Of a DNA stretch of 64,000 nucleotides, positions 10,209 to 10,729 are shown piece after piece. The stretch lies in NCBI RefSeq assembly GCF_022846255.1, contig NZ_AP025682.1, one strand, 5' to 3'. The notes under the pieces were generated by a model. That model had not been told where the DNA came from and made no database searches. It saw nothing but the letters and a program-made list of their open reading frames with translations. The number at the start of each line of letters is the position of its first letter. Position 1 is the first letter of the stretch. Source of the DNA: Escherichia coli. Lineage in GTDB: Bacteria > Pseudomonadota > Gammaproteobacteria > Enterobacterales > Enterobacteriaceae. The position numbers and the translations under genes are program-made.

Positions 10209-10729
10209 GTCATACAATCATTCTTTTTCTTGTCTAAATGTTGTTAATATTTAACAACTCTCGATAGTTATTATATTTTCCCATTATTGAATCCCGTAAT
10301 AAAATAAAGAAGATAATGGTTTTGTGTCTTGAATATATATTTATTGATTTAATTAATATTAAATTTTAGCAATAAATAATGGTAAGGTCATTATAATTTT
10401 TTTAGTGTGCTTTATAAGCAATTCATTTTTGTTGATTATAATGGTTTGTTTTTTTGTTGATAATTCGCATGTTTTTTTGTTGGAAAGTGGTGAAAGTATT
10501 TTGTAGATGTATTAATTAATAAAATCTACATAAAGTGTTTAAGTATTACTAAATTGAGTTTTTTTATAGATAAGACCAACATACAGACACACCAGAGAAT
10601 ACTTGTTTACATTCTATGATTATATTGGAGTGTATATGTTCAATGGCTAACTATAAGTATCGGGCATACTATATATTAATTTTATGTCAGGTGTTTATAT
10701 TATAACTCTTAATGATTTAAGGACAAATA
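10209..10729 (+). promoter_or_regulatory. Highly AT-rich control region upstream of the yfc fimbrial operon (probable H-NS-type silenced promoter)
   Basis: About 520 bp, very AT-rich by eye; contains the palindrome GTTGTTAA-TAT-TTAACAAC (10240-10258), the inverted repeat TGTAGAT...ATCTACA (10502-10530) and three direct TTTTTGTTGA/G repeats about 24-25 bp apart (10426, 10451, 10475). Confidence 0.5.

Follow-up and report, generated by a model that had tools for sequence, protein, structure and literature searches.

Does the control of a cryptic fimbrial operon reside in discrete motifs upstream of its first gene, or in the base composition of the DNA in which these motifs lie? This is the question raised by the yfc locus in the 64,000-nucleotide stretch of Escherichia coli DNA analysed here (the window), where a strongly AT-rich spacer in front of yfcV contains a palindrome, a short inverted repeat and three direct repeats. 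A preliminary description of the locus had proposed silencing by nucleoid proteins together with a dedicated regulator that binds phased sites. Our analyses suggest that the region is probably an H-NS/StpA-silenced fimbrial promoter which is relieved by trans-acting anti-silencers, and that composition rather than motifs is its main property. We favour this reading because of the H-NS and RNA polymerase data available for the K-12 counterpart, the cryptic nature of the Yfc fimbria and the induction of yfcV by TosR, and below we set out the evidence from composition, allele comparison and motif analysis that bears on it.

The spacer between sixA (9678-10163) and yfcV is the cis-regulatory region (promoter or promoters, and leader) of the yfcVUSRQPO chaperone-usher (CU) fimbrial operon (Table 1). 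Open reading frames, RefSeq annotation and Pfam domains (Fimbrial, Usher, PapC_N/C, PapD_N/C and DUF2544, the YfcO family) give a seven-gene order of major subunit, usher, chaperone, three further subunits and a YfcO-family adhesin. The region thus lies between sixA and yfcV, 5' of the usher, chaperone, minor subunit and adhesin genes, and the operon is bounded by sixA on one side and by a convergent smrB on the other. RefSeq names the product of yfcV simply 'fimbrial protein'. The spacer is 566 bp long, has a GC content of 26.5% and is of the B2/ExPEC allele type; the stretch 10209-10729, which had been noted earlier, starts inside it, the intergenic region itself beginning at 10164. Sequence identity is 99.9% to strain AR_0017 over 10050-10850, 100% to Nissle 1917 over 10209-10545 and 100% to ABU 83972 over 10405-10545. 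As the preliminary description had observed, no regulator gene is adjacent: RefSeq annotation and Pfam reveal no gene for a DNA-binding protein at the locus, which supports the view that any such factor must act in trans.

Within the first 45 bp of the spacer, and hence outside 10209-10729, lies a GC-rich stem-loop of the terminator type that we assign to sixA; a simple terminator scan misses this hairpin because a T-run 3' of the stem-loop is absent. The K-12, O157 and Ecol_545 alleles have a stem-loop of different sequence at the same position. An Rfam scan of 9600-11400 (E ≤ 1) returned no family match, its sole hit being an IS009 fragment that, at 17.8 bits, falls far short of the gathering score of 117 (E = 0.2), and for lack of an Rfam match we rejected a known RNA element in the spacer. 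A small gene was likewise rejected, as the spacer holds merely AT-rich open reading frames of 20-33 aa without support.

Table 1. Features of the sixA-yfcV control region and of the start of the operon; coordinates are positions in the window.
Feature	Coordinates	Strand	Basis or remark
sixA-yfcV intergenic region, complete	10164-10729	+	Open reading frames; RefSeq annotation of a strain with 99.9% identity
sixA terminator-type GC-rich stem-loop	10173-10199	+	RNA fold -18.8 kcal/mol, z = -3.0
Extremely AT-rich core, predicted H-NS/StpA binding platform	10209-10729		GC 23.6% over 521 bp
Perfect 8-3-8 palindrome, GTTGTTAA-TAT-TTAACAAC	10240-10258		Chance level, p about 0.17
Putative TosR motif site for CFT073 yfcV, TATATTTATTGATTTAATTAATATTAAAT	10336-10364	+	MEME prediction, PMC5956150 Table S2
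Distal promoter-like site, TTAATA-16-AATAAT	10353-10380	+	Consensus scan
Degenerate 23-bp tandem repeat, 2.4 copies	10426-10482	+	TRF score 68, 82% matches
7-nt inverted repeat, TGTAGAT-N15-ATCTACA	10502-10530		Chance level
Proximal region with cross-allele conserved blocks	10511-10715	+	13-sequence alignment; block functions putative
Conserved proximal block, ATTAATTAA	10511-10519		
Conserved proximal block, TAAATTG	10550-10556		
Conserved proximal block, CACACCAGAGAATA	10588-10601		
Conserved proximal block, TGTTCAATGGCT	10637-10648		
Proximal promoter-like site, TTAATT-16-TATTAT	10676-10703	+	Same columns in all four allele groups
Invariant translation-initiation region, TTTAAGGACAAATAATGAGTAAGTTTG (Shine-Dalgarno, ATG, first yfcV codons)	10716-10742	+	Alignment
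yfcV, major fimbrial subunit, operon gene 1	10730-11296	+	188-aa open reading frame; Pfam Fimbrial PF00419, E = 7e-14

What distinguishes this DNA within the window is its composition. The claim that the stretch upstream of yfcV is the most AT-rich of the window is borne out: the minimum-GC stretch of 521 bp falls at 10217-10737 (23.4%), and the runner-up, at 59189-59709, has a GC content of 34.7% in a window that is mostly about 50% GC. The region therefore has the AT-rich length of at least 300 bp that characterizes an H-NS-silenced promoter. The coding part of the operon has a GC content of 50-58% and the control region, across lineages, one of 24-32%, and because the operon body lies in this higher range, only the yfc control region looks 'xenogeneic'.

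In K-12, the corresponding spacer between yfcV and sixA is one of 78 promoter islands (PMC3661553, Table 1), which are AT-rich, crowded with promoter-like sites, bound by RNA polymerase and transcriptionally silent (Panyukov & Ozoline 2013, PMC3661553). It qualifies as such under the PlatProm definition, which requires a density of 8 or more predicted start points per 100 bp sustained over no less than 300 bp, and it is marked as H-NS-bound in the ChIP-chip data of Kahramanoglou and Oshima (PMC3661553). Genomic SELEX places both an RpoD-holoenzyme peak and an 'HNS' mark at the same spacer (PMC3946193). In addition, Yfc has been characterized as a core-associated, functional yet cryptic CU fimbria (PMC3559732), and cryptic CU fimbriae as a class are described as H-NS-repressed (PMC3559732, citing Korea et al. 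2010). This K-12 island is the closest known counterpart of the B2-type spacer, which shares with it its position, its operon, a strong AT-richness over a few hundred bp and a cryptic fimbrial operon downstream. A simple sigma-70 consensus scan of the B2-type spacer found 9 promoter-like sites compared to 3.8 ± 2.1 in shuffled sequences, which would fit a promoter island. The B2-type spacer differs from its K-12 counterpart in that it is only about 57% identical to the K-12 allele and does not keep the promoter predicted there by SELEX, TTGAAA-17-TATAGT (PMC3946193). Moreover, the H-NS occupancy data come from the K-12 allele. By analogy, and bearing in mind that the K-12 evidence concerns an allele with so little identity across the spacer, H-NS would be expected to bind the B2-type allele as well. 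The H-NS consensus TCGATAAATT, in the form quoted in PMC3661553 and with up to 2 mismatches allowed, has 65 matches in the window against 57.7 expected, and one weak match in the region.

Comparison of alleles points in the same direction. Virtually all E. coli have the yfc operon at this locus (PMC3559732). The present version of the spacer, in contrast, occurs in only about 1225-1247 of the 5426 complete genomes, and the rest carry deeply diverged alleles, which include the K-12/IAI1, O157 and Ecol_545 types. Identity to K-12 is 96.5% for sixA and 91.7% for smrB, 61-76% for the yfc genes and 56.7% for the spacer as a whole, with 52% in its distal part and 66% in the proximal 220 bp. A blastn search found no paralogous copies of the distal region 5' of other fimbrial operons, and the region is present as one copy per genome in 1247 of the 5426 genomes. 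In other alleles and species the spacer has a GC content of 27-32% at identities of 52-66%, and AT-richness is the one property that is kept in every allele and species. Composition has thus been held while the sequence was almost completely replaced, which indicates selection on composition, as an H-NS platform requires. Together with the K-12 H-NS data and the repression of CU fimbriae, this AT-richness in every allele supports the earlier proposal of nucleoid-protein silencing.

Cross-allele conservation of sequence is seen in the proximal part of the spacer, where several short blocks can be aligned (Table 1). All 13 aligned sequences, alleles and species alike, share the same 27-nt translation-initiation region, whereas the neighbouring sequence varies. 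Matches to the promoter consensus are weak throughout, and two positions are shared among alleles, with a -10 element near 10375 and near 10696, respectively; judging from the sequence, these are the candidate promoter positions. The Ecol_545 and O157 alleles have a promoter-like site in the alignment column of the distal one, which itself lies some 30 bp 3' of the column to which the K-12 SELEX promoter aligns. We would expect the core promoter, leader and ribosome-binding site to reside in the more conserved proximal ~220 bp.

If the spacer is silenced by H-NS, factors encoded elsewhere would have to relieve it, and there are candidates for such a role. Overproduction of the PapB-family protein TosR in CFT073 increased yfcV expression by log2 5.2, or about 37-fold (PMC5956150), an effect that may be indirect as it comes from overexpression. 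The TosR site predicted for CFT073 yfcV lies 365 bp upstream of the ATG (PMC5956150, Table S2), and an identical sequence is found in the window (Table 1). In K-12, overproduction of BolA raised yfcV (PMC4337573), and for CsiR a weak peak within the spacer is on record from ChIP-seq (PMC5217608). The locus in these respects resembles pap, tos and auf with their PapB-family proteins and the H-NS-repressed CU operons, which likewise have an AT-rich upstream region and cryptic expression; induction of yfcV by TosR and the predicted AT-rich motif at 10336-10364 are in line with counter-silencing of the kind exemplified by pap, tos and auf. The yfc locus differs from them in having neither a PapB/PapI-type regulator gene nor GATC sites, and TosR binding at yfc is an in silico prediction only.

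We believe that the following mechanism would account for these properties. The ~520 bp at 23-27% GC would provide a platform for polymerising H-NS, probably also StpA, and the resulting filament would trap or exclude RNA polymerase, so that the operon stays cryptic under laboratory conditions. Expression would then need trans factors that displace or remodel the H-NS filament, such as TosR in strains that carry it. A role of the T-tracts in the spacer is presumed.

How do the individual motifs relate to such a platform? We assessed their significance with dinucleotide-preserving shuffles of the 566-bp spacer. The 8-3-8 palindrome is present as it had been described (GTTGTTAATATTTAACAAC), but it is not significant because perfect hairpins whose arms are 8 nt or longer and whose loop does not exceed 5 nt arise in 16.5% of the shuffles. 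As an RNA hairpin it is weak (-6.2 kcal/mol), and although it is identical in all 10 haplotypes of the B2-type allele, it is absent from the other yfc alleles and Escherichia species examined. The inverted repeat, too, is present as described, with its arms at 10502-10508 and 10524-10530 separated by a 15-bp spacer. Inverted repeats whose arms reach 8 nt or more across a spacer of 6-20 nt occur in 37% of the shuffles, and the 7-nt repeat is weaker still. Its left arm is broken (10504-10506) in 4 of the 10 haplotypes, including the common class SK1144/AGR5151, while its right arm alone falls in a block that is partly conserved across alleles; the repeat as such is absent from the other yfc alleles and Escherichia species examined. 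We take both of these motifs to be by-products of a sequence so rich in AT.

The direct repeats had been described as three copies 24-25 bp apart on roughly the same face of the DNA. Three copies are indeed there: TTTTTGTTG starts at 10426, 10451 and 10474, with no further copy in the 64 kb, and the repeat cores read TTTTTGTTGA at 10426-10435 and 10451-10460 and TTTTTGTTGG at 10474-10483. The triple repeat is real and non-random, since none of 2000 shuffles contained three copies of a 9-mer within 60 bp. Successive copies are 25 and 23 bp apart, however, and for this reason they do not share one helical face but lie at 0, 137 and 206 degrees if a turn is taken as 10.5 bp. The spacing also shifts by 1 bp in other strains because the T-runs differ in length, so the copies form no phased same-face array: their spacing is non-integral in helical turns and varies by ±1 bp between strains. 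When repeat conservation is compared across strains, as the preliminary description had suggested, the repeats are kept with some substitutions within the B2-type allele, but TTTTTGTTG is absent from the K-12, IAI1, O157, Ecol_545 and E69 alleles, from E. whittamii and from the other Escherichia examined. We regard the triple repeat as a degenerate tandem duplication of 23-25 bp that is specific to the lineage and was built on ancestral T-tracts. Its copies most likely contribute generic A-tract character only (narrow minor groove, rigidity), possibly favour H-NS nucleation, and probably do not serve as sites for a dedicated regulator.

This last point deserves a closer look, as the TTTTTGTTGA/G copies, with or without the palindrome, could be read as cooperative sites at which a dedicated, trans-encoded regulator switches the operon on or off. 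The repetition is far beyond chance, repeats 2 and 3 are free of substitutions in 9 of the 10 haplotypes, the palindrome is invariant among these haplotypes, and other alleles have T-tracts at similar positions; moreover, the operon has no cis-encoded regulator, and yfcV answers to the trans factors TosR and BolA. We nevertheless consider this reading unlikely. Besides being out of phase and variable in spacing through T-run slippage, the copies are not immune to change: strain WP3 has TTTCCGTTGA as its repeat 1, and in strain MS15236 the third copy closes with GTTGT. Among the 10 haplotypes, 3 of 30 positions vary in the repeat cores compared to about 45 of 566 (8%) in the spacer, and since core variability is about that of the background, the repeats appear to be under no extra constraint, although a sample of 10 haplotypes with ~8% variable sites has little power for selection on 10-bp motifs. 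The GTTGA part is missing from all other operon-keeping alleles and species examined, and the 64-kb window gives no hint of a regulon, as it has no copy of the motif apart from these three. The repeats also lie 250-300 bp 5' of the ATG, which is not where an activator of the conserved proximal promoter-like site would typically bind, the putative TosR site, as the one candidate so far published for a trans factor, coincides with none of the three motifs, and a tandem duplication accounts for the repetition without any function. Judged by eye, neither the repeats nor the palindrome offer a convincing fit to the consensus of PhoP, OmpR, ArcA, IHF, CRP, SlyA or Rns. The proposal of a dedicated regulator on phased sites is therefore unsupported, given that the copies are out of phase, vary in spacing, change at the background rate and are absent elsewhere.

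The T-tracts on which the repeats are built could also have been selected as structure, either as an H-NS nucleation site or as a UP-like or upstream-activating bend. Five same-strand tracts are spaced at intervals of 23-29 bp (10397, 10426, 10449, 10472 and 10499). Tracts near -330, -285 and -260 from the ATG are common to the K-12, IAI1 and O157 alleles despite an identity of ~55% in the surrounding sequence, whereas Ecol_545 keeps, of these, only the ones near -332 and -291. Furthermore, the only distal columns that are invariant in the 13-sequence alignment are T's, mostly within T-tracts. As a sequence pattern, this positional conservation is only suggestive, and it looks biased because aligners stack T-runs and T is the commonest base. 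The tracts are also indel hot spots, with lengths of T6, T7 or T8 depending on the strain at 10397, 10449, 10472 and 10559. We found no AA/TT periodicity at 10-11 bp beyond weak noise; power at 10.5 bp was below the shuffle mean, and peaks at ~12.25-12.5 bp merely mirror the ~24.5-bp spacing. Classical in-phase A-tract curvature is not predicted, since the 10-11 bp periodicity is missing. Selection on the array as a structural element thus seems doubtful to us, even though the recurrence of T-tracts in deeply diverged alleles could reflect some specific constraint.

Many fimbrial operons are phase variable, and the region might accordingly act as a switch, be it through a fim-like inversion catalysed in trans by UPEC recombinases, pap-like Dam/Lrp methylation or slipped-strand changes in its poly-T runs. 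We regard this as very improbable in any of the three forms. With perfect 9-bp inverted repeats at 10351-10359 and 10673-10681, 313 nt apart in a fimbrial promoter region of a few hundred bp, the spacer recalls the geometry of fimS of type 1 fimbriae, but such repeats occur in 78% of the shuffles. In contrast to fimS, no inverted form is found, the expected inversion junction being present in 0 of 1223 genomes with the allele, and neither recombinase, PapI nor PapB genes were found next to the operon in the RefSeq annotation and by Pfam. The preliminary description was thus correct in reporting no fim-like invertible switch. Since in 1225 genomes a single location matches 80% or more of an 801-bp query that runs from sixA to yfcV, the arrangement of the spacer is collinear, and a fimS-like element, with an inverted repeat at chance level and one orientation only, was rejected. 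A pap-type Dam switch is excluded because GATC is lacking throughout 10164-10729; neither the two GATC sites in Lrp-binding regions nor the adjacent papI/papB-type genes of such a switch are there, and this candidate was rejected as well. The strain-to-strain differences in T-run length would be the raw material for slipped-strand switching, but runs of 6-8 are short for it and none lies in a mapped promoter spacer.

AT-rich, H-NS-bound control regions in front of cryptic E. coli fimbrial operons are already well established, the spacer in its K-12 form has been listed among them, and work on TosR has dealt with the CFT073 form. A 23-bp tandem repeat specific to the B2-type allele seems not to have been reported before. 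For the study of such regions our analysis provides a useful negative, as chance accounts for two of the three motifs in DNA this rich in AT and the third is an allele-specific tandem duplication in which neither selective constraint nor helical phasing is seen.

We also considered a more specific and rather improbable idea, in which the T5-7GTTGR repeat is a lineage-specific cis-element for an ExPEC-specific trans factor and allows Yfc fimbriae to escape from H-NS silencing in the host. The candidate factor could be a PapB-family or other island-encoded regulator, and K-12-type strains would lack such an escape. The yfcV of the B2/ExPEC-type allele is a marker of urovirulence according to Spurbeck et al. 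(2012), as cited in PMC4810122, and if the B2-specific repeat were a regulator site, this could help to explain why this yfc allele behaves differently in ExPEC and tracks with urovirulence.

Finally, the yfc control region keeps its composition and a proximal scaffold of ~220 bp while its sequence is replaced allele by allele, a pattern that may be of interest to students of the evolution of silenced fimbrial operons.

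Allelic divergence in this region begins at the sixA stop codon, yet the stem-loop that adjoins it is kept. We found this hairpin in four allele groups, with stems of differing sequence and energies of -17 to -26 kcal/mol, so that its structure is conserved and its sequence is not. At the far end of the spacer, TTTAAGGACAAATAATGAGTAAGTTTG is unchanged across 13/13 aligned alleles and species and is flanked on either side by variable sequence. This element could serve as a site of post-transcriptional control, for example through binding of an sRNA or of CsrA at GGA; alternatively, it could be no more than a translation start under strong constraint.

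Coordinates of the conserved elements at the two ends of the sixA-yfcV spacer (L-numbers, loci retrieved from other genomes)
Element	Window	L002	L007	L003	Description
Stem-loop	10173-10199	2615-2665	2115-2165	1615-1665	directly 3' of sixA
TTTAAGGACAAATAATGAGTAAGTTTG	10716-10742				27 nt; Shine-Dalgarno sequence plus the start of yfcV (ATG and first codons)

Within the B2-type allele, the main indel hot spots of the control region are four T-runs (10397-10403, 10449-10455, 10472-10478 and 10559-10565), which are T6, T7 or T8 depending on the strain, and these indels alter the spacing of the tandem repeat cores by 1 bp. The region is also naturally disrupted in two strains. In the bloodstream isolate AF3 (L027 1748-2445), IS1 is inserted within repeat 2 at about position 10459, and in Z1323HEC0355 (L023) a deletion starts in the proximal promoter region, at about 10581, spans yfcV and reaches into the usher gene. 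Elsewhere in the window, the next lowest GC contents are those of 59189-59709 (34.7%), 61040-61560 (37.2%) and 53097-53617 (38.6%), which may be additional H-NS targets.

Sequences of E. coli type, either the sixA-yfcV region or a fragment of yfcV, were also retrieved from a MAG labelled Collinsella sp. (L011), whose spacer is near-identical to the ETEC4071 allele, and from a 428-bp contig of Stappia sp. (L016). Such contigs in unrelated taxa most likely reflect contamination or mis-binning of public assemblies.

Downstream of the control region, the genes from yfcV to yfcO (10730-17164) each share only 61-76% nucleotide identity with K-12, compared with 96.5% for the flanking sixA (9678-10163) and 91.7% for smrB (17488-18039). 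The yfcO-smrB spacer (17165-17487; GC 50%) measures 323 bp, a surplus of approximately 250 bp over its 70-bp K-12 counterpart. The yfc operon as a whole is an allelic block that has diverged deeply from its K-12 counterpart. Its abrupt limits, at the sixA stop codon on one side and before smrB on the other, together with the low identity and the GC contrast between coding sequence (50-58%) and control region (24-27%), suggest that this core locus underwent either allelic replacement in the distant past or diversifying selection.
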